Positions 6,293-48,899 of a stretch of 64,000 bases of DNA are shown one piece after another (position 1 is the stretch's first letter; each line of letters starts with the position of its first letter). This stretch comes from a virus: IMG/VR virus record IMGVR_UViG_3300037755_000497, positions 1 to 64,000 of that record. One strand, given 5' to 3'. The position numbers were made by a program, and so were the translations under genes. Below the pieces are notes generated by a model, which was not told where the DNA came from, did no database searches, and saw only the letters and a program-made list of their open reading frames with translations.

Positions 6293-6726
6293 TGGTGGAC
6301 GTGACGGGAATCGAACCCGTGTCCAGAATCGTAATCTTAAAATCGTTTACAAGCATAGTTCTATTTAAAGTTGAACTTCTTTATGGGGGCACACCAAGGT
6401 GTACCGACTCCACCACTTTATTTTTAAGGAACAAAGAAACCTACACCCTTCTGACATTAGGTTAGTGTGAACCCTTATGACTTATTGAATCCGCTAGTCA
6501 CCAAAGCTGGTTTCCCCAATTCTGTTTCTTGGTCTGGGGAACCTCATTACCTAAAAACTAAAATTAAGCGGCCAGTAAAACTGGTTGTGCCTTTTTAGCT
6601 TTATAATCAGCAAGCGAAACTACATTGTTTTCGTTTATGTTTCGGTCAGCTTTTTACGTGGCCAACTGACCAACCACGGCTTGAAGATAATTGTCCTACT
6701 AACCCTGTCGAAACCTTAACACGCCC
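6293..6726 (-). ncRNA. ssrA: tmRNA (434 nt)
   Basis: 5' GGGCGTG...TTCGAC; 3' T-arm ACGGG-TTCGATT-CCCGT and CACGTCC-A-CCA; acceptor stem with G3.U70 Ala determinant; internal tag ORF 6564-6632 ENNVVSLADYKAKKAQPVLLAA* after a UAAAC resume context. Confidence 0.95.
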
Positions 6727-36760: not shown

Positions 36761-37951
36761 TTATTTCTTTTTCTTGCCTGACTTTGATTTAGGCTTTTTC
36801 TTATCTTTACTCTTTTTTTCTACTTTCTTTTTGCCTTTAGATTTCTTTTTAGGCTTTTCGTCTTCATCGTCATCGTCTTCATCGTCTTCATCGTCTTCAT
36901 CGTCTTCATCGTCTTCATCGTCTTCGTCATCGTCTTCGTCTTCATCATCATCGTCATCATCATCGTCATCATCATCGTCTTCATCTTCGTCATCATCATC
37001 GTCTTCATCATCATCGTCTTCATCATCATCGTCTTCATCATCATCATCTTCGTCTTCATCATCGCTATCAACTTCAACGTCATCATCTTCGTCTTCGTCA
37101 TCGCCATCAACTTCAACGTCATCATCTTCGTCTTCGTCACTTTCAACTTTTATTTTGCTACCCTTTTTTAACTCTTTTAAAAGTTTTTCAAGTGCTTTCA
37201 TAGAAAATGTTGGTTCAAGTTTTTCTAAATCTTCCATCTGGCCAATAACTTCTTCGTCACTTTCAAATGCACCTGATTTTAAAAGTTCAGCTGATTTACC
37301 CCATTTGGTATCTTTGTATCTTCTCATGACACTTTTCTTACCATTATGGGTAATAATCATTGCTTTACCCTTATCCAAATTAAAAAACTTTTTAAGGCTT
37401 GTTGTTTCGTCATCCATTTTTTCCATGAATTCTTCAAACACATCTTTAGCAAGCCTTAGAACTTGTACACATTTATCTGTAACGTCTTTAACTTTACCCT
37501 TCTTACCTTCTTTCAGTTTTACAGCGTTAACATAGTAAGAAGTTTGTTGCATAAAAGGTTTGTGCGCTTGGCTTTCCTTCTTTGACATCTTTTTGCCACT
37601 TTCTTCTTTTTCTTTAATTTTGTTATAAATTTCAAAACCGTATTCACAAACTGGACAATCTTCATCGTAGGCCCTAGCACAAGTAACTGGTTTACCAATT
37701 AATTTATTGCCCTTTCTTTGCTGGTGAATCATAGTCATTTTATAAGGTAGATCATTCTTAGAACCGGGGTAAGGTGGTAGGGGCATAACATGCGTTTCTA
37801 CACAATCTAATTTCATGTAGTCTGTACTATTACCGCTTTTCTTCTCACGTGATTTCTTAACACCACTTTTTAATTTCTTTTCATCATAATCAAATGATAG
37901 CTTGTTACTAGCTTTCTTCTTTTCTTTTTTGTCTTTTGACTTCTTAGCCAT
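36761..37951 (-). CDS. gp32-like single-stranded DNA-binding protein with very long acidic tract and basic ends
   Basis: H...CARAYDEDCPVC Zn site like T4 gp32; YYVNAV; position between UvsY-like gene and helicase. Confidence 0.75.
   Translation of the reverse strand: MAKKSKDKKEKKKASNKLSFDYDEKKLKSGVKKSREKKSGNSTDYMKLDCVETHVMPLPPYPGSKNDLPYKMTMIHQQRKGNKLIGKPVTCARAYDEDCPVCEYGFEIYNKIKEKEESGKKMSKKESQAHKPFMQQTSYYVNAVKLKEGKKGKVKDVTDKCVQVLRLAKDVFEEFMEKMDDETTSLKKFFNLDKGKAMIITHNGKKSVMRRYKDTKWGKSAELLKSGAFESDEEVIGQMEDLEKLEPTFSMKALEKLLKELKKGSKIKVESDEDEDDDVEVDGDDEDEDDDVEVDSDDEDEDDDDEDDDDEDDDDEDDDDDEDEDDDDDDDDDDDDEDEDDDEDDEDDEDDEDDEDDEDDDDEDEKPKKKSKGKKKVEKKSKDKKKPKSKSGKKKK
36858..37146 (-). repeat. GAY/GAA trinucleotide tract encoding ~95 mostly Asp/Glu residues
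   Basis: Direct reading. Confidence 0.95.
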
Positions 37952-37978
37952 TTGATACCTCTTTTTTTGTTGTTAACG

Positions 37979-38420: not shown

Positions 38421-41108
38421 TTATTTTGCCTTCTTTGCTAATTCTTCAATACTAAATTTTTCACCGTACCAGCAATCATATAAATCAAAATCTACAACTA
38501 AAGGAACTTTCCATTTCCCTTCGCCTAAAACTCTTTCCATAGTTTGATGGCAAAGTTCCTTTACAATTTTCATTTCACTTTTTGGCCCTTCACCAACAAG
38601 ACCATCGTGAATTGACAAAAGAATTCTTGATTTTAATTTTCTTTTCCTTAACTCTTTTTCTAACTTCAATTTACCCTCAACATAGATTTCATTAGCGTAA
38701 CCCTGAATTGGGAAGTTCATTGCTTGCCTATGAATAGCACCTATATCAAAATCACGCTTCTTACAGTCTTGCGAGTGTTCAGAATTGAACCATTCTGATG
38801 CAGCTGTAAATCTTCTTTTTCTACCTGTTTCTGGTAACTCAAAAAGGCCTACATCAATTGATTGGTCACATATTTCTTCACGCCAATCATGCAAGTAATG
38901 GTACTTCTCAAAGTAAATATCTATCATGTCCTGAACATCTTCAACGTCCATACTAAATTGCTGGGCTAAAGTGTTGGCATCCATACCATAGTTAAGTCCA
39001 AAACCAAGTGTTTTTGCGAAAACCCTATGTTCATCAAATATACTTGATAACAATATTTTATTTTCAATTGATTTTAATTTCTTCTTATTCTTCCTATACT
39101 TTTCTTCCCAATTTTTTGGTGGCTTGTAGCTTCTTATTTTTGCAAATTTTTCTTCTGTCATATCCTTATCAAGGAAACCCAATGTAGTGCCAAACTTAAC
39201 AACGTTCCTTGTATGTAGATCAACACCTTGTTGTATTTCTTTAATCATGGTCTTATCTTTTGATAAGAACGCACCTACCCTTAATTCCAACTGTGCAAAG
39301 TCAGCTGAAAATAGAATCCAATTCTTTTTCTTCGTTTTAAACAATTGCCTAATATTAGCATCTGGAAAAAGTGGGTTAGGCCTTGGTATATTTTGAAGGT
39401 TTGGTTCACTTGATGACATCCTTCCAGTTCTTGGCGTGTGAATATTCCAACTACCATGAATGAAACCTTTATCATCTACTGATTGGAGTAAACCGCTTTC
39501 GCCATCTTTACCATCAAGGAACGTCTTCTTCATTGTTGAAAGACTTCTATGCAATAATATCAATTTTGGTATCTTTGCGTATTTTCTTTTCCTTGCAAAT
39601 TTTTCTAAAGTATCAGCACCAACCGAGTAACCTTTTTTACCACGCTTAATTCCCATTTCTTCAAATGGGTAATCTTTAGATTCAAAGTAGGCCAGAAGTT
39701 GGTCTGGTGAATTCAGGTTTAAATCTTTTATCTTTGTTGCTTTTCTTACTTTACTTTCTATGTCAATAATTTTTGCATCAAAAAGCCTACCAATTTCTTT
39801 TAATCTTTCAACGCCAAACTTCATCCCACGGTATTCACAATCGGTCATTAATTGAGTTAATGGCATTTGCCTATCAAAAAATAATTTTTCTAGTTTTTCT
39901 TTTTTTAATTCTTTTCTAATTTTTTTCTCAAGCCTATTATTGCCACAAACGTCAATTGCAAGATATTTGCAAATCATTAAAGGTGGAATGAATTGATAGG
40001 ATTTTTTATTCTTATGTGATTTGTTTGTGTACGGCCACAGAAGTGTATCGTAAGCACCGTAGTTAATTCCCCTTAACTTCATGCAAGTATTCAAATCGTG
40101 CTTTTTGTTTTCATCAATAAGCGCATCGCCTATGATGGTATCAAAGTCAAAATTTTTATATGGAATTTTATTTTTCCTACCAAATTTTTGGTCGAACTTT
40201 CCATTATGAAGTGTCTTTTTTGCTTTAGATGCATTAACCCTTCCTACAGTAGCAAAAATTCTTTTCTTGTTCGCCTTTACAAATTTATTTATTTTCTTTG
40301 CTAACTTTCTATCTTCATCTGTCCATAGTTTGTGATTCATGTGAATATCTTCATATTCAAGCATAGGTACTATTGTTGCAAATTTTCCGTTATCAGCATA
40401 ACCAGCGTTAATTATTTTGTGCTTATAAAATTTTAATCCTGTAGTTTCGTAATCTGTGTTGAACCTTTCAACGTTTGAATAGTATTCTTCAAATTCTCTT
40501 AAATCTTTTTTTGATAACACTAATTTAAATTCTGGGTCTTTGGTTCTTCCATCATCACCAGTTTTTGCAAATTTTTTTGCTTTCTTCAAATCATTGATAA
40601 TATAATCGTCAAATTCCCATTTTGTTAAAGCTGAAACTGGTGAATAGGTTGGTATTATTTTTGTTGAAAATGTCCTTTCTTTTTTCTTATATTTGTAATC
40701 AATATCAAAATCATCAATGTGCCCCTGGAAATCACCAATGGTATTTTCATTCATTAATTGCATCAATGGTGCTTTACCCATACAAACAATTATCTTTGGC
40801 CTTACTTCCAGAATTTCTTTGGCTATATGACTTTGACAAGCTACAACGTGCTTCTTCCCAATATCACTTGGCTTGAATGCTTTACATTTAACTGCAAATG
40901 TTAAGTAAACATCATCACGATTGATTCCAGCTTTTTCTAAAAGGTAGTTTAATTTTGAACCGCCATCACCAGAAAATGGTTCACCAGTCTTGTCATCTGT
41001 AAATGAAGGGCAATCACCCACTAGCATGATACTAGCTTTAGAAGGGCCAACGCCTTCCATACAATTTGTATCACATTTATAAGCTAAATCACAATTATCG
41101 CAAAACAT
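38421..41108 (-). CDS. polA: Family A DNA polymerase with N-terminal family-4 UDG-like domain and 3'-5' exonuclease
   Basis: DYETTGL, HNGKFD, YLAID exo motifs; RTGRMSSSEPNLQNIP, DFAQLELR, AKTLGFGLNYG, NFPIQG, IHDG. Confidence 0.95.
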   Translation of the reverse strand: MFCDNCDLAYKCDTNCMEGVGPSKASIMLVGDCPSFTDDKTGEPFSGDGGSKLNYLLEKAGINRDDVYLTFAVKCKAFKPSDIGKKHVVACQSHIAKEILEVRPKIIVCMGKAPLMQLMNENTIGDFQGHIDDFDIDYKYKKKERTFSTKIIPTYSPVSALTKWEFDDYIINDLKKAKKFAKTGDDGRTKDPEFKLVLSKKDLREFEEYYSNVERFNTDYETTGLKFYKHKIINAGYADNGKFATIVPMLEYEDIHMNHKLWTDEDRKLAKKINKFVKANKKRIFATVGRVNASKAKKTLHNGKFDQKFGRKNKIPYKNFDFDTIIGDALIDENKKHDLNTCMKLRGINYGAYDTLLWPYTNKSHKNKKSYQFIPPLMICKYLAIDVCGNNRLEKKIRKELKKEKLEKLFFDRQMPLTQLMTDCEYRGMKFGVERLKEIGRLFDAKIIDIESKVRKATKIKDLNLNSPDQLLAYFESKDYPFEEMGIKRGKKGYSVGADTLEKFARKRKYAKIPKLILLHRSLSTMKKTFLDGKDGESGLLQSVDDKGFIHGSWNIHTPRTGRMSSSEPNLQNIPRPNPLFPDANIRQLFKTKKKNWILFSADFAQLELRVGAFLSKDKTMIKEIQQGVDLHTRNVVKFGTTLGFLDKDMTEEKFAKIRSYKPPKNWEEKYRKNKKKLKSIENKILLSSIFDEHRVFAKTLGFGLNYGMDANTLAQQFSMDVEDVQDMIDIYFEKYHYLHDWREEICDQSIDVGLFELPETGRKRRFTAASEWFNSEHSQDCKKRDFDIGAIHRQAMNFPIQGYANEIYVEGKLKLEKELRKRKLKSRILLSIHDGLVGEGPKSEMKIVKELCHQTMERVLGEGKWKVPLVVDFDLYDCWYGEKFSIEELAKKAK

Positions 41109-43268: not shown

Positions 43269-44420
43269 TTATTTATCCCTTAATTCTTCTATATACTCAA
43301 TAACGAATTCTTGTATGGCCTCTGTCCTTTCAGCTTGACATTGCTGGACATATAGTGCTTCAAATAATGAAGCTGTCTTCTGTCTTATTTTTTCATACCT
43401 TTTCTTATAAAGTTTGTTATCTTGTAAAGGCGTTGATTTTTCTTCATCAGTTAATTCAATTTCTTCTAATTCTTTAGTTCTTAAATAATCTAATAGCCTA
43501 TCTTCGGCACCACTAGTAGAAAGGTGGTTTGGCTTTGGAAAAACACCATTACCTTCATTAGCGAATTTCAAACCAGTAATCTGGGCCTTCAAAAACTTTT
43601 TAATCGTAGTTTCATTATCATTTATAATGTCAACTGCTAGTAAAAAGTGTTTAAAATCTTTTCCAGTCTGGGAAGGAACTCTAAGAACTTTCTGCTTATA
43701 AAATTCTTTCCTAAGTTTCGCCCAACGCTTTGCTAATTGTAACGCTTTTTTAATTCTCTTACTTTCAACATCTGTTACTATTTTTTTCTTTTTAGATTTC
43801 TTCTTCTTTTCTACAATTTCTACTTCATAAGAAGGGTGCCCCTTATTTTTCTTTAATTCATTTTCCCTATACTTTATTAAAGCATCACTCATAACTTTAA
43901 ACTCAACAGCTGTTACATTATCACCCCTAAACTTATTGCATCTACCACAACAAGGTAGGACATTATCAATTGTATATCCTTTAAAATTATCTATCCTATC
44001 TAAACCGCACCCAGCTTCAAACCCAATTGTTTTTACGTTACAATAGTAGCAATTTTTATTAATTATTTCAGTGTAATCACTCTTTTTTAGATTAAAATTA
44101 ACACCCCTTTCATTCGCCTGTGATTTCGCTCTATTAAATCTAATTAATGGTTTCTTTGTAGCATCCGTTATACAATTTATGCATCTTCCTAAGTATCCAT
44201 CCTTCCTGCTAGCATCACTGTTAAAAAAAGATACATCTTTTATTTTTTTACAAGCCGAACATTTCTTTTCTGTAACTATTAAACTACAGGCAACAGATTT
44301 TGCCTGTTCTTTCTTGCATTGCTTACATTGGTTTTTAAAACCTGTTTTACTTTTTGTACGTTTATCAAAATTACTAATTGATTGTTTCTTTTTACAAGTA
44401 GTACATTTTTGTTTCTTCAT
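43269..44420 (-). CDS. HNH endonuclease (CxxC repeats) fused in frame to an unrelated C-terminal helical phage domain
   Basis: CYYC...GLDRIDNFKGYTIDNVLPCCGRCNKFR; C-terminal ~190 aa is non-HNH. Confidence 0.75.
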   Translation of the reverse strand: MKKQKCTTCKKKQSISNFDKRTKSKTGFKNQCKQCKKEQAKSVACSLIVTEKKCSACKKIKDVSFFNSDASRKDGYLGRCINCITDATKKPLIRFNRAKSQANERGVNFNLKKSDYTEIINKNCYYCNVKTIGFEAGCGLDRIDNFKGYTIDNVLPCCGRCNKFRGDNVTAVEFKVMSDALIKYRENELKKNKGHPSYEVEIVEKKKKSKKKKIVTDVESKRIKKALQLAKRWAKLRKEFYKQKVLRVPSQTGKDFKHFLLAVDIINDNETTIKKFLKAQITGLKFANEGNGVFPKPNHLSTSGAEDRLLDYLRTKELEEIELTDEEKSTPLQDNKLYKKRYEKIRQKTASLFEALYVQQCQAERTEAIQEFVIEYIEELRDK

Positions 44421-44586
44421 ACAATTACCCTTATTAATAAGACCCAGGATGTATTTAGCACCCTGGGAATAAACGGTGTTCCACCAGCTGTCAGAATTAA
44501 ATTTGATTTCTCAATCTTCATCCTAATTTTTGGTAGCTTTTTTTGCATTGGTCGATGCACTATTTCCCCCACCGTTTAAAAGAAAA

Positions 44587-45684
44587 TTATTTTTTCTTTT
44601 TACCTTTTGATTTTTTCCCTGATTTTTTATCAGACTTCTTTTTAGTGGAAACTTTTTCTTTGTTTGATTTCCCACCTAACTTCTTCATTGCCCATTTCTT
44701 CAAGTCATCTGTTTTACCAATTGAGGTTGGTTTTTCAGCACCTAGAATTGAAACTAACATTAGCAATTCAGCATATTTTAACTTATCAACACCAGATGGG
44801 TTCTTTTTAAGTTTAGCTACACTTTTTTCCATTTCGGCCCGTTTAGCTTCCCTTTCTTTCTTCTTATCATTAGCAGTTTTACCTTTTGTGTCAGTTTTTG
44901 CTTTTGATTTTTTTCCTTTCGGTGCTTCCTTTACTTTTGACTTTTTACCTTTTTTAGGCTTTTCGTCTTCGTCTTCATCTTCATCTTCGTCTTCATCTTC
45001 GTCTTCTTCGTCTTCGTCTTCATCTTCATCTTCGTCTTCTTCTTCTTCATCTTCGTCTTCGTCTTCATCTTCGTCTTCGTCTTCATCTTCGTCTTCGTCT
45101 TCATCTTCGTCTTCGTCTTCATCTTCGTCTTCGTCTTCGTCTTCGTCTTCTTCGTCTTCTTCGTCTTCTTCTTCGTCTTCTTCTTCGTCTTCTTCTTCGT
45201 CTTCTTCGTCTTCGTCTTCTTCTTCGTCTTCTTCGTCTTCTTCATCAGAATCATCTTCATCAGAATCATTTTCATCTTCATCAGAATCATCATCTTCTTC
45301 GTCTTCTTCGTCTTCTTCGTCTTCTTCGTCTTCATCACCATCTTCTTCATCATCTTCTAAAGATTCTTTACAATATGGACAATGATCTTCACCAACTAAA
45401 ATATCAGAACCACAAACTGGGCAACCACCAAAGCTTCCAGAATCTTGGCCTTCGGCCGCTGCTAATCTTACAGTTTCAATTTGGTCAGCGAATAACCTGG
45501 AAGCAACAAGTGTGTTTGTAACACCAGCTAACTCTGTTAAGAAATGCATTAAGTTTAAATCGTCACCAGCTGGCACTTCAATTTTCTGTGCTTCACAAAA
45601 CTTTTGAAGCGCACCAAATAATTTTTCATAGTTTGGTTTTGATTTCTTTTCTTTTTTTGATTTTGTTTTTGACTTCTTAGCCAT
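44587..45684 (-). CDS. Zn-ribbon / poly-acidic / SAP-like protein, candidate histone chaperone
   Basis: CPVC...CPYC, ~130-residue D/E tract, K-rich flanks, LKYAELLMLVSILG...GKTDDLKKW. Confidence 0.75.
   Translation of the reverse strand: MAKKSKTKSKKEKKSKPNYEKLFGALQKFCEAQKIEVPAGDDLNLMHFLTELAGVTNTLVASRLFADQIETVRLAAAEGQDSGSFGGCPVCGSDILVGEDHCPYCKESLEDDEEDGDEDEEDEEDEEDEEDDDSDEDENDSDEDDSDEEDEEDEEEDEDEEDEEEDEEEDEEEDEEDEEDEDEDEDEDEDEDEDEDEDEDEDEDEDEDEDEDEEEEDEDEDEDEDEEDEDEDEDEDEDEDEKPKKGKKSKVKEAPKGKKSKAKTDTKGKTANDKKKEREAKRAEMEKSVAKLKKNPSGVDKLKYAELLMLVSILGAEKPTSIGKTDDLKKWAMKKLGGKSNKEKVSTKKKSDKKSGKKSKGKKKK
44963..45357 (-). repeat. GAA/GAC/GAT tract encoding ~130 mostly Asp/Glu residues
   Basis: Direct reading. 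Confidence 0.95.
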
Positions 45685-45723
45685 TTGATACCTCTTTTTT
45701 TTATTTGTTAAAAATCCCTGTTA

Positions 45724-45915
45724 TTAAAAATCTGTAGCTTTAACAGTTTTCCTATTATTATTAATACATCTTTGCTGGGCATCAGCTATCATAAGGTAGA
45801 CTTTTTCATTTAGCTTTTCTAATGCTTCACTTGAAACATTAAGACCAGTTGACTTAAGTGCTTCTTTTGTTTTTGAACCTATTAACAACATTTCCTTTCC
45901 TTGCTTACTTCCCAT
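45724..45915 (-). CDS. Bacterial-type histone-fold protein (short alpha3; Bd0055 / Leptospira face-to-face type)
   Basis: LLIGSKTKEALK (alpha1), NVSSEALEKLNEKVYLMIADAQQRC (alpha2), RKTVKATDF (RxTxxxxD); AGGAG RBS. Confidence 0.88.
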   Translation of the reverse strand: MGSKQGKEMLLIGSKTKEALKSTGLNVSSEALEKLNEKVYLMIADAQQRCINNNRKTVKATDF

Positions 45916-47458
45916 TTTTATTTCTCCTTTGAATTACGCTTACGCTACTGTAAGTGTTTAGAATGGTTTTACCTTTTCTTCTTAGCTTCTCACTTTTTGT
46001 ATCCCATAGAAAATCGAAAGTTGGTTTACTTTTTTTACCAAATAATTTCCTTAATACATCATCGTAGTCACGTTCTACCCTACCCTTCATCTGGTTAAAG
46101 TCTTGGATGTTTATAGGGATGGTGCATATACCATGGTCAAAAGTTTTTATACTTAAACCAGCAATACCTTTTCTTGTTGTTATTACAACATCAAATTGTT
46201 TTTTAATTCCCAGATTTATAATGTCAAAGAATTCTTTGTCAGCACTATATGCCAGCATAAATTCTTTCCAATCTTCTTTCCAATCTTCTTTATCGTTAAT
46301 TTCTTGTTTGCTAACGTTACCAACCAACAACTTCACACGCAAATTTTTATTTAATAATTTTTCTCTTAAATACAATCCTTGCCATCTTCTTTCAACAAAA
46401 ATAATTACTATTTTTTTCTTCTTGACTTTTTGAAGCGTCCTGTTGATTACAATTTTGTTCCTTTTTTTATCTCTGGCCATATTGTAAAGAAGTTCAGTGT
46501 TGTTACTTGTATCGTCATAATCATCACCATCGTAATCAGTTGGCACTAAATTTATTTTTGCTGGTAGCCTAGAACCTAAATCTGTATCAGGTATGATGTG
46601 AATTAATTTTCCAAACAAATCATAAATTAAATATTCTTTCCCATCTTTTCTTTTTTCATCAGCACTAAGTCCTATTCTAAATTTTGCTGGACATAAATCT
46701 AAACAACCATTGAATGAAGCCGCCCCATATCTTTGAACTTCATCAGCTATTAATATTCCACACACTGGGTAATATAAATCTTGGTTTGATTTGTTTCTTA
46801 AACTTTGAACCATACAAACATTTATTTTACCAACTTTCCTATTCCCAGGATAAGGTAAATCAGGGAAAGATTCTGTCCACGCTTTTTTTGTTGCGAATAC
46901 GCCACCAGCACCACCTATGTCTTCTAATTTTAAATTTAATAAATCATTTCTTAGTGCTTCTTTAATCCATTGTATCTGGTGAATCTTTTCCCATAGTACA
47001 ACTAGACCAACTTGTTCACTTCTTGCAATTGCTTCTAAACCTATTACAGATTTACCACAAGAACATGGGCCGCGAACAATTCCCTGTTTCTTTTTTAAAA
47101 TTATTTTTACAGCTTTCTCTTGGTCTTTTCTTAGGATTGTTTTTGAATCATATTCCGTTTTTTTTGTTACACGTTTAAATTTTATAACAACATCATGGTT
47201 TCGTTTTCTTAGTTCTTTTTTTATTCTTGGTAAGCAACCACGTGTGAATCTTATAACTTTTTTATCATCACTTATTTTAAAACTTTCGTAAATTTCAGGT
47301 TCATTGTCTGTTGGAAGCCCCATTCTTTCCATACGGATGTACATTGGGTTTATGTGTTTACATAATTTTTTTAGATTAAGGATTGCCCTTCTATCATCTT
47401 TTAAAAGTTTTTTGTAACTCAAACTTGCGTGTGAATCAACCTTGATTTTTACCTTCAA
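45905..47458 (-). CDS. SF2 helicase (UvsW/XPB-like)
   Basis: LRKDQ, GPCSCGKS, IADEVQ, GLSAD, QMKGRVER. Confidence 0.85.
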   Translation of the reverse strand: MKVKIKVDSHASLSYKKLLKDDRRAILNLKKLCKHINPMYIRMERMGLPTDNEPEIYESFKISDDKKVIRFTRGCLPRIKKELRKRNHDVVIKFKRVTKKTEYDSKTILRKDQEKAVKIILKKKQGIVRGPCSCGKSVIGLEAIARSEQVGLVVLWEKIHQIQWIKEALRNDLLNLKLEDIGGAGGVFATKKAWTESFPDLPYPGNRKVGKINVCMVQSLRNKSNQDLYYPVCGILIADEVQRYGAASFNGCLDLCPAKFRIGLSADEKRKDGKEYLIYDLFGKLIHIIPDTDLGSRLPAKINLVPTDYDGDDYDDTSNNTELLYNMARDKKRNKIVINRTLQKVKKKKIVIIFVERRWQGLYLREKLLNKNLRVKLLVGNVSKQEINDKEDWKEDWKEFMLAYSADKEFFDIINLGIKKQFDVVITTRKGIAGLSIKTFDHGICTIPINIQDFNQMKGRVERDYDDVLRKLFGKKSKPTFDFLWDTKSEKLRRKGKTILNTYSSVSVIQRRNKNGK

Positions 47459-48113: not shown

Positions 48114-48478
48114 GATTGCTGGAAAACATGTTACGTTAAAACATTGGAACATTGAAACGTTGGATTGCTGGAAAACATTCAAAACATAATTTCTGGTGAA
48201 AAACAAAAACAAGAAAAAATTGTTAGAAAATTTATTTTCTATATGTATTTATTCTATAATAATATATTCTATACTTAAGACCCCCCAAAATATGTTCCCG
48301 AAAAACTTGTTTGCGGTAACAGAATATGTTCCTGAAACGGTACAAAATATGTTCCTGAAAAACATACCTTTTTCGGTAACAGAATATGTTCCTGAAAACA
48401 TGTTTTAAAACTTAATTTGTATGTTTTTCGGTAACAGATACTAGGGGGTAGTGCATAACAGGAACATAATATGTTCCT
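48114..48478. repeat. Iteron-like repeat array, candidate replication origin
   Basis: AATATGTTCC(T/C)GAAA at 48289, 48323, 48346, 48383; CGGTAACAGA at 48314, 48374, 48429; palindrome AGGAACATAATATGTTCCT 48460-48478; GATTGCTGGAAAACAT at 48114 and 48163; AT-rich 48200-48275. Confidence 0.75.
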
Positions 48479-48899
48479 AATCAATTTTAAGTTTTTTAGC
48501 TGATTTCCTTAATTTACTTTCACCAGGAACAAGAAGCACTTCCCATTTAGTAAACTTGATTCTTCTTCTACCTAAACCATTTTCACCATCAAAAACTGAA
48601 ATGTCTGTATAAGATGTTAAACCATCTTTGGTTTTGATGTAGTAATGCGGCTTAAGCATTTTCTTCTTTTCCAGTGACTTCAAAATTATTTCAACACGCT
48701 TTTTTGGGTAGCCAAATTCTTTTACTATCTGGTGAACTTGAATCATTGAAATACCCCGTTCACCTTTTTTATTTGGGAATGCGCATTCTCTTAATAGTAA
48801 GTAGAAACTAAATTCTTGATAGGTTATCAGACCTTTCCTGTAGGCATGGTGTAATGCGAATAAATTAATTCTTTGTTTCTCAAATATAGATAGCTTCAC
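48477..48899 (-). CDS. Winged-helix-like DNA-binding protein
   Basis: FSFYLLL...IVKEFGYPKKRVEIILKSLEKKKML. Confidence 0.6.
   Translation of the reverse strand: MKLSIFEKQRINLFALHHAYRKGLITYQEFSFYLLLRECAFPNKKGERGISMIQVHQIVKEFGYPKKRVEIILKSLEKKKMLKPHYYIKTKDGLTSYTDISVFDGENGLGRRRIKFTKWEVLLVPGESKLRKSAKKLKID

Follow-up and report, generated by a model that had tools for sequence, protein, structure and literature searches.

A face-to-face-type histone and a poly-acidic neighbour in the replication operon of an uncultured phage

Histones of bacteria have been recognised only recently, and their handling during replication, together with the ways in which phages of histone-bearing bacteria cope with them or exploit them, is the question that the locus described here addresses. 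The closest described system is HLp of Leptospira perolatii, a histone whose tetramer interface consists of R49, S52, N53, R55, T61 and F63, with an RD clamp formed by R55 and D62 and DNA contacts made by K17 and K21 (PMC12701072). Residues at the dimer-dimer contact (R48 and N52 in the numbering of the hidden Markov model) separate such face-to-face (FtF) histones from the 'bacterial dimers' of the HBb type (PMC11390915), and FtF histones are already known in Bdellovibrionota (PMC12701072, PMC11390915). From phages, 84 bacterial-like histone-fold proteins encoded in Caudoviricetes were retrieved from IMG/VR 4, and their acquisition from hosts was proposed (Hlife 2025, PMC13681535). Here, we analyse positions 1-64,000 (hereafter the window) of the IMG/VR virus record IMGVR_UViG_3300037755_000497, a linear sequence of 108,875 bp with a CheckV completeness of 76%, in which a gene for a 63-residue histone directly precedes a gene for a 365-residue protein with a very long run of aspartate and glutamate (D/E). 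As bacterial-like phage histones have already been reported, the noteworthy novelty is the occurrence of an FtF member in the context of a replication operon.

The reading that we favour, with moderate confidence, is that the pair consists of two separate things that are neighbours by chance, namely a captured FtF histone and an older acidic protein belonging to the replication module. An earlier reading of the same DNA by a model (the original prediction) had instead joined the two into one system of histone and dedicated chaperone, and the evidence that bears on both views is presented in the following sections.

Fold, class and likely origin of the phage histone

The two genes are located on the same strand and are separated by 39 nt (45685-45723); their coordinates and the peptides quoted for them in the original prediction were verified.

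45724..45915, minus strand: histone gene, 63 aa (open reading frame, ORF)
44587..45684, minus strand: acidic gene, 365 aa (ORF and composition)

Judged by its sequence and its structural model, the 63-residue protein is a genuine FtF histone with a truncated alpha3, similar to HLp. When this basic protein (isoelectric point, pI, 9.5) was compared with PDB by phmmer, HLp was the best match (9QT0, chain 9qt0_A; E 9.3e-11, 45% identity, residues 4-63 free of gaps), and HBb (Bd0055) was matched more weakly (E about 0.05, ~30% identity). In an AlphaFold2 (AF2) model calculated from 21 homologues, with a predicted local distance difference test value (pLDDT) of 72.6, alpha1 spans residues 14-22, alpha2 residues 29-52 and a one-turn alpha3 residues 60-62. 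The top Foldseek matches of this model were HLp, HBb and the archaeal FtF histone HTkC (template modelling (TM) scores 0.70-0.78, root-mean-square deviation (rmsd) 1.5-2.0, 54-57 columns), and nucleosomal histones ranked after these three in the list. Model and fold search thus agree on the fold of FtF alpha3 histones, in which alpha2 is shortened and alpha3 makes a single turn. In the phmmer alignment the window histone carries R49, N53, R55, T61, D62, F63, K17 and K21 at HLp numbering, with R49, N53 and R55 invariant in the homologue alignment (A1). Both the RD clamp (R55/D62) and the RxTxxxD motif are present (R55-K-T57-V-K-A-T-D62), and R55, T57 and D62 are invariant across the 21 homologues. 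The assignment to bacterial histones, including the face-to-face subtype, which the original prediction had made from the letters, is therefore borne out by the HLp match, the truncated alpha3 of the model and the RxTxxxD motif, and the fold search that it had proposed placed HLp, HBb (Bd0055) and HTkC on top.

As to the class within the bacterial histones, the presence of the dimer-dimer residues and of RxTxxxD together with the absence of a C-terminal helix points to the FtF type rather than to either of two other groups. The 'bacterial dimer' class of HBb is ruled out by the presence of R49 and N53 and by the weak match to HBb itself, and the 'phage histones' of Schwab et al. 2024 are ruled out because the window protein ends at F63 directly after alpha3 and possesses RxTxxxD. 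The Pfam model CBFD_NFYB_HMF (PF00808) matched at 14.5 bits (E 0.046), below its gathering threshold of 21.4 bits; since Pfam was also empty for all 34 close histone homologues that we found in metagenomes, this model seems to be insensitive to the subfamily. A separate case was encountered in a complete viral genome of 47.9 kb with terminal repeats (G004), which contains two histone folds in tandem (G004:C1:40430-40789; L003 7998-8351) and whose histone is about 36% identical to that of the window. The profile matches there span 40430-40603, where a TAA was flagged, and 40625-40789, and correspond either to a doublet or to two adjacent genes.

Information about the origin of the histone gene came from a scan of one genome per species, in which 168 histone loci were retrieved. 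The best 80 of these stem nearly exclusively from metagenome-assembled genomes (MAGs) and isolates of Bacteriovoracaceae and Halobacteriovoraceae, with some from Gemmatimonadota and Omnitrophota, and the top cellular matches, all Bacteriovoracaceae MAGs, reach 80-82% amino-acid and 77% nucleotide identity. No other protein encoded at these 80 loci is in common with the window, which indicates that their contexts are cellular. A maximum-likelihood tree was calculated for the histones from 62 columns, which limits its resolution. In this tree, the window histone pairs with a sequence from a 123-kb contig (P0002), and the pair is sister to a Bacteriovoracaceae sequence. The surrounding clade of 29 rows (support 96/87) comprises loci from Bacteriovoracia genomes, one MAG row that carries no taxon label and metagenome contigs that carry no taxonomy; with one exception, all rows that have a taxon label are Bacteriovoracia. 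Another supported clade, which may be a further phage lineage, is made up solely of sequences on contigs of 94-104 kb and on short contigs. Two side observations concern the cellular sequences. Many Bacteriovoracia genomes encode two paralogous FtF histones that fall into two separate clades, and two contigs of a MAG labelled Sulfitobacter (JBLHVN01; L021/L031 and L049/L050) match a Halobacteriovorax MAG exactly in their histones, which probably reflects an incorrect label or faulty binning.

Because the closest cellular relatives belong to Bacteriovoracaceae and the phage sequence is nested among them, capture of the histone gene from a Bacteriovoracia-type host, i.e., a predatory bacterium of the Bdellovibrionota, appears likely, the histone gene being the single gene on which this host assignment is based. 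The gene is not a very recent arrival but has long been resident and maintained, because its G+C content at third codon positions (GC3, 0.20) equals that of the neighbouring genes. Other markers do not add to the host assignment: the NAD ligase of the phage is only about 30% identical to the ligases of 61 Bacteriovoracia genomes, its transfer-messenger RNA (tmRNA) had no DNA match in 5 Bacteriovoracia genomes, and among GenBank phages neither the histone nor the helicase encoded next to it found a match, the N-terminal domain of the acidic protein giving only insignificant ones. The tmRNA gene itself was located by ARAGORN at 6293-6726 on the minus strand and specifies the tag peptide ENNVVSLADYKAKKAQPVLLAA.

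In the scenario that we favour, the captured gene would have been inserted, equipped with its own strong ribosome-binding site (RBS), exactly between the gene for a superfamily 2 (SF2) helicase and the gene that follows it. By homology, dimers of the histone would pair face-to-face into tetramers, which would bind DNA irrespective of its sequence, wrapping or bridging about 60 bp. Since it is expressed together with replication genes, the histone probably coats or arranges the phage DNA during its replication, or else mixes with the host histones, to which it is closely related.

Gene order in related phages and the chaperone question

The histone and acidic genes reside in the replication module of a genome in which nearly every gene is on the minus strand and which encodes PolA, a primase-helicase, SbcCD, a UvsX-like recombinase, a Dda-like helicase, NAD ligase and a tail fibre. 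Pfam and PHROG matches agree with the placement given in the original prediction, between the SF2 helicase upstream and the HNH and primase-helicase genes downstream, and the acidic gene is followed by the HNH gene, the primase-helicase gene (phrog_239) and the PolA gene. The following elements delimit the unit.

45905..47458, minus strand: SF2 helicase, ResIII-type, first gene of the unit (Pfam ResIII, phrog_16)
45924-45929, minus strand: AAGGAG, Shine-Dalgarno sequence of the histone gene, within the last helicase codons (read from the sequence)
44443..44467, minus strand: terminator-like hairpin, 9 bp stem with 6 GC pairs and a T-rich tail (consensus scan only)

The first 11 nt of the histone gene also belong to the 3' end of the helicase gene, and the histone ATG (45913-45915) follows the AAGGAG motif at a distance of 8 nt. 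The hairpin is located 120 nt past the stop codon of the acidic gene and, as a putative terminator, possibly closes a transcription unit of helicase, histone and acidic gene. Contigs mapped from two sediment runs have the same sequence and include no histone-less variant, the D/E repeat having been skipped in this comparison.

The original prediction proposed that the phage chromatinises its replicating DNA with its own histone and that the acidic protein is a dedicated chaperone which holds and deposits this histone. Several properties speak for this idea: the genes are adjacent on one strand with a short gap and no terminator between them, the charges of the products are complementary (pI 9.5 versus 4.1, with 127 D/E in the acidic tract), and a SAP-like domain of the acidic protein could bring it to DNA. 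Long D/E tracts are, moreover, typical of eukaryotic histone chaperones. The comparison with related phages leads elsewhere. The sister phage IMGVR_UViG_3300025018_000113 (G001; 98.7 kb, CheckV 94%) is syntenic with the window and shares 57% identity in the helicase and 65% in the primase-helicase. There, the ATG of the orthologous acidic gene lies 4 nt after the helicase stop codon, and a profile of 21 histones found no histone anywhere in the genome at E<=1. The contig ends within the D/E repeat and its other end opens with the rest of the acidic gene, followed by the genes for a 237-aa protein and the primase-helicase; as the two ends thus meet inside the acidic gene, the genome is essentially closed. 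In a more distant relative (G006), the helicase of which is 33% identical to that of the window, the order is helicase, a 75-aa ORF that is not a histone, a 174-aa Zn-ribbon/acidic protein homologous to the acidic family (E 8e-9), a 225-aa protein, primase-helicase and PolA. A metagenome scan for further relatives retrieved only the JGI copy of the G001 contig, and a scan with the single helicase sequence retrieved nothing.

The survey was also carried out from the side of the histone. Within +-8 kb of 84 histone genes (80 bacterial, 4 viral) there was no homologue of the acidic family and only one acid-rich ORF of any kind. Neither did the family occur in the 4 other histone-bearing viral records (G002-G005), one of them 100% complete, or in the 201 Bacteriovoracia genomes sampled, while positive controls were found in the window record (G000), G001 and G006. 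Among the viral records, both genes are thus present only in the window record, the acidic gene without the histone in G001 and G006, and the histone without the acidic gene in G002-G005; the window record is the only one retrieved that holds both. The claim of a histone with a dedicated chaperone is not supported by this distribution: the acidic gene is kept in the histone-less G001 and in G006, and the synteny survey that the original prediction had proposed found it conserved beside none of the 84 homologous histone genes. Because the acidic gene has been kept at this position in relatives that lack the histone there, the neighbour appears to predate the histone, and, most simply, the histone gene entered a pre-existing junction of helicase gene and older acidic gene. 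The conserved order of the module in this phage group would then be helicase, acidic protein, a small conserved protein, primase-helicase and PolA.

The small conserved protein of this order is fused to an HNH module in the window. The HNH protein (383 aa, 43269-44420, minus strand) is a fusion whose C-terminal half occurs as a stand-alone conserved protein in the relatives (237 aa in G001, L099 574-1287; 225 aa in G006, L094 5688-6365), which suggests that the HNH module was added in the window phage. Three further peculiarities of the module were noticed. The PolA gene (38421-41108, minus strand) opens with a Cys-rich N-terminal extension, found also in G006 (L094 8669-), which we take by eye to resemble a family-4 uracil-DNA-glycosylase-like domain. 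Behind the part for the N-terminal Zn-finger region, the primase-helicase gene of G001 holds about 1 kb of additional in-frame sequence (L099 1294-2061; G001:C1:1294-4248); this insertion, which the window gene lacks, resembles an intein or homing endonuclease. Upstream of the replication operon, internal repeats in the intergenic stretch 48196-48484 yield repeated peptide words (e.g., 'VTEYVPE') in overlapping ORFs on both strands, and this stretch may be a regulatory or origin-like array.

The acidic protein and the tail of the single-stranded DNA-binding protein

The acidic protein (pI 4.1) is composed of the parts given below, which are listed together with the gene for the single-stranded DNA-binding protein (SSB) of the phage and the initiation cassette that the two genes have in common.

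Residues 1-16 of the acidic protein, minus strand: Lys-rich N-tail (composition)
45361..45636, minus strand: N-domain (residues 17-85, two helices) and candidate C4 Zn ribbon (residues 86-108) (alignments A2, A3 and A5; AF2 pLDDT about 76-79)
44962..45357, minus strand: poly-acidic tract, residues 110-241, 127 D/E of 132 (composition; predicted disordered by AF2)
44677..44874, minus strand: C-domain, residues 271-336, a long helix followed by helix-extension-helix (AF2 pLDDT about 95)
36761..37951, minus strand: gp32-like SSB (phrog_224)
45667..45701, minus strand: acidic-gene initiation cassette with RBS, ATG and MAKKSK codons (DNA alignment with the SSB start, 37934-37968)

The candidate Zn ribbon contains the cysteine knuckles CPVC (residue 88) and CPYC (residue 102), the tract is encoded by an imperfect tandem array of GAA, GAT and GAC, a Lys-rich linker connects it to the C-domain, and a Lys tail forms the C-terminus. 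The original prediction of a Zn ribbon, ~130 acidic residues and a SAP/Rho-N-like C-terminal domain is in line with these findings. For the C-domain, comparison of folds by VIA-align gave the Rho N-domain (1a62, Z 5.0, rmsd 2.0, 45 aligned), the SAP domain of Ku70 (1jjr, Z 5.0) and another SAP domain (1zrj, Z 4.3), matches that are modest but agree with one another, their Z scores falling within the range of common helical arrangements, and Atlas leads were Rho_N, SAP and Ish1 at TM 0.43-0.57; no Pfam SAP or Rho_N match was obtained at E<=1. A SAP/Rho-N-like nature of the modelled domain is therefore plausible, and it presumably tethers the protein to nucleic acid.

An exhaustive HMMER search with residues 1-110 against 1.84 billion representatives yielded no more than 16 proteins at E<=1e-3. 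Their signature includes F29, C30 and 'D.FNL..FL' (in full 'FC...I.VP.GD.FNL..FL') as well as 'GGCP.CG'. The cysteines have been lost in some family members, so that metal binding does not appear to be essential to the family, and Zn-ribbon Pfam models remained below threshold (14 bits for the window protein; 22 bits versus a cut-off of 25 for the homologue P0035). Members reside on short contigs of 0.7-7 kb, and the assemblies of relatives break at the D/E repeat. Full-length queries were swamped by low-complexity D/E matches, among which only P0035-P0038 are true homologues; full-length homologues from other samples have the same architecture, with D/E tracts of varying length and composition, Lys-rich spacers and a conserved C-domain. 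A word search with residues 1-112 scored nothing, searches of PDB by profile and by sequence with both domains gave nothing significant, and Foldseek with the full-length model gave nothing at E<=0.001. By sequence comparison, the acidic protein is thus the member of a rare orphan phage family. Two other interpretations of the gene were rejected. A poly-Ser ORF on the plus strand is a shadow ORF, and the minus-strand frame is considered real because the N- and C-terminal domains are conserved in the homologues from other samples. The acidic protein is also not the SSB of the phage, since a separate gp32-like SSB is encoded; the Pfam SSB model had no match anywhere in the record.

This SSB nevertheless proved revealing. 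In the window it starts with MAKKSK and carries a tract of 97 residues, 89 of them D/E, that is followed by a Lys-rich end ('EKPKK...KKKK'), and it has the junction 'EDEKPKK' in common with the acidic protein. The likeness extends to the DNA, where about 36 consecutive bases covering RBS, ATG and first codons are identical between the two genes; the two genes of G001 do not have the start cassette in common, which points to a recent gene conversion in the window phage or to translational control that its two genes share. In G001, the SSB likewise has a giant D/E tract (about 100 aa, with a Lys-rich cap; L100 1531-2667), and the junction EDEKPAKGKKAK is identical between SSB and acidic protein. 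In G006, both proteins have short acidic tails that end with FDLD, the SSB tail comprising about 40 aa (L101 1390-2238). Within each of the three genomes junctions or tails match, which means that the tail design tracks the genome and not the presence of a histone. On the evidence of these sequences, acidic tract and basic tail change from genome to genome together with the tail of the respective SSB.

Against the dedicated-chaperone reading stands that the acidic gene persists where there is no histone, is absent beside the other histone genes retrieved and has a tract design that is common to the SSB; from the sequence comparisons, such a function of the acidic protein is not supported, and we regard it as quite improbable. 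Homology to a known chaperone fold was found neither in Pfam nor in fold searches: in the window protein and five homologues, Pfam models of chaperone cores had no match at E<=1, and none was among the fold matches listed. A predicted complex of two histone copies with residues 17-140 of the acidic protein received an interaction prediction score from aligned errors (ipSAE) of 0.00, a value that counts neither for nor against binding. In the literature, we found no description of a prokaryotic or phage histone chaperone.

A less specific relationship with histones is unlikely too, although it deserves somewhat more credit. The D/E tracts of the Zn-ribbon protein and of the SSB might bind FtF histones of host and phage alike and clear, buffer or redeposit them at the replication fork. 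This would fit the chromatin of the inferred host lineage, which uses histones as chromatin proteins (PMC11789641, PMC10627809), as well as the occurrence of giant tracts on two replication proteins in each of the two closest phages, where they are far longer than the tails of G006, and it is not contradicted by the lack of a histone gene in G001. On the other hand, the assignment of the window phage to that host stems from one gene, with a ligase of about 30% identity and an unmatched tmRNA; a core followed by a poly-D/E tract and a SAP domain is also seen in SSB-like proteins of unrelated phages (phrog_378); and both the binding of tracts to histones and a histone-bearing host of G001 and G006 are presumed. 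If this reading were true, bacteria and their phages would have their first described case of a histone chaperone activity.

The extreme negative charge density of the tract, flanked by basic and SAP-like parts that could target DNA, also brings to mind a mimic of DNA that sequesters restriction enzymes, nucleases or nucleoid proteins of the host and thus acts as an anti-defence or takeover factor. Acidic DNA-mimicking phage proteins such as the HU inhibitor Gp46 form a known class. However, the known mimics are small folded proteins rather than disordered tracts, the gene is part of the core of the replication module with conserved synteny and not one of the variable early genes, and the tail co-varies with that of the SSB; we give such a decoy a low probability. 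Much the same holds for the idea that the succession of Lys, D/E and Lys blocks drives coacervation with Lys-tailed replication proteins and DNA and thereby scaffolds a replication compartment. The layout of a block polyampholyte on two replication proteins in two genomes is in line with it, but the reasoning is purely compositional and the homologues of G006 have short tails, and we consider this explanation hardly probable.

According to the reading of two independent neighbours, the acidic protein would consist of the Zn-ribbon N-domain and a variable poly-D/E tract, complemented in the closer relatives by the SAP/Rho-N-like domain and Lys tails, and would act like the tail of an SSB: held on DNA by its C-domain and Lys tails, it would serve basic replisome proteins as a hub, through electrostatic docking or mimicry of DNA. 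For comparison, T4 gp32 as well as T7 gp2.5 and gp4 use their acidic tails to contact replisome partners at basic surfaces, in competition with DNA, and T7 has two proteins built with one and the same kind of tail. We infer the hub function from this analogy and from the fact that the tail design copies that of the SSB. The acidic protein may still bind the basic histone incidentally.

Several points weigh against this reading. Location in the same operon with a gap of 39 nt and strongly opposite charges are compatible with an interaction of the two proteins. Only two relatives with the acidic gene were compared, one of which, G006, is a fragment of 38% completeness. The closest homologues of the histone (P0002, P0006, P0013, P0025 and P0030) are encoded on contigs of 94-123 kb that probably belong to related phages, and a subclade in which the pair of histone and acidic gene is conserved, for example on these contigs, is possible. 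Should G001 and G006 also infect bacteria that possess histones, then little can be concluded on the handling of histones from the lack of a phage-encoded one. The role as replisome hub is drawn by analogy with the T4 and T7 tails and from three genomes, and for the N-domain no fold match beyond coiled coils and Zn ribbons was obtained.

Comparison with known systems

The locus provides a concrete case in which an FtF histone, apparently from a Bacteriovoracia-type host, has been fixed in the replication operon of a phage, and the cloned gene could show whether the protein forms tetramers, wraps DNA and mixes with the histones of the host. A rare orphan family of the replication module is defined as well, in which an extreme tract evolving together with the SSB tail offers a testable clue to the organisation of the replisome in an uncultured phage group. 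At a more general level, adjacency and opposite charge are no evidence for a chaperone where relatives show that the neighbour predates the histone.

HLp (PDB 9QT0/9QT1/9QT2; PMC12701072) likewise has 63 residues, the alpha3-truncated fold, the R55-D62 clamp, R49/N53/R55/T61/F63 and K17/K21. The window histone differs from it in being encoded by a phage within a replication operon and in loop contacts (S52N, K54N, T56K, R59K and T27V), and an HLp-like tetramer and DNA wrapping are predicted for it from sequence and model. HBb (Bd0055) of Bdellovibrio bacteriovorus (PDB 8CMP, 8FVX; PMC11317129, PMC10627809) belongs to the same alpha3 superfamily, with RKTxxxD and TM scores of about 0.72-0.78, and originates from the same phylum, Bdellovibrionota, as the inferred source of the window histone. 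HBb-type proteins lack dimer-dimer residues of the R48/N52 type (PMC11390915), whereas the window histone has them. Phage-encoded histone folds from metagenome mining are also represented by the Caudoviricetes set (PMC13681535), among the 84 proteins of which the window record is possibly itself included, and by the phage histones of Schwab et al. (PMC11390915). The latter have a C-terminal tetramerisation helix and no RxTxxxD, whereas the window protein is a plain FtF singlet with this motif, and a replication-operon context or an acidic neighbour is described in neither study.

With nucleoplasmin, NAP1, nucleolin and DEK, the acidic protein has the long D/E tract in common and, in the case of DEK, also a SAP-type DNA-binding domain, and Pfam domains of the nucleoplasmin-like or SAP kind are present in some low-complexity matches obtained with the full-length protein. 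Compared with these eukaryotic acidic chaperones, however, the likeness is one of composition, and the phage family does not co-occur with histone genes. Closer parallels are T4 gp32 and T7 gp2.5 and gp4, which also have an acidic disordered tail, a feature that in the three genomes compared here is common to the Zn-ribbon protein and the SSB, with partner contacts that are predicted by analogy. While the T4 and T7 tails comprise about 20-50 residues, the tracts of the window phage extend over 97-132 residues and are followed by Lys-rich tails, and the Zn-ribbon protein adds a SAP-like domain to a core that is not an oligonucleotide/oligosaccharide-binding (OB) fold.

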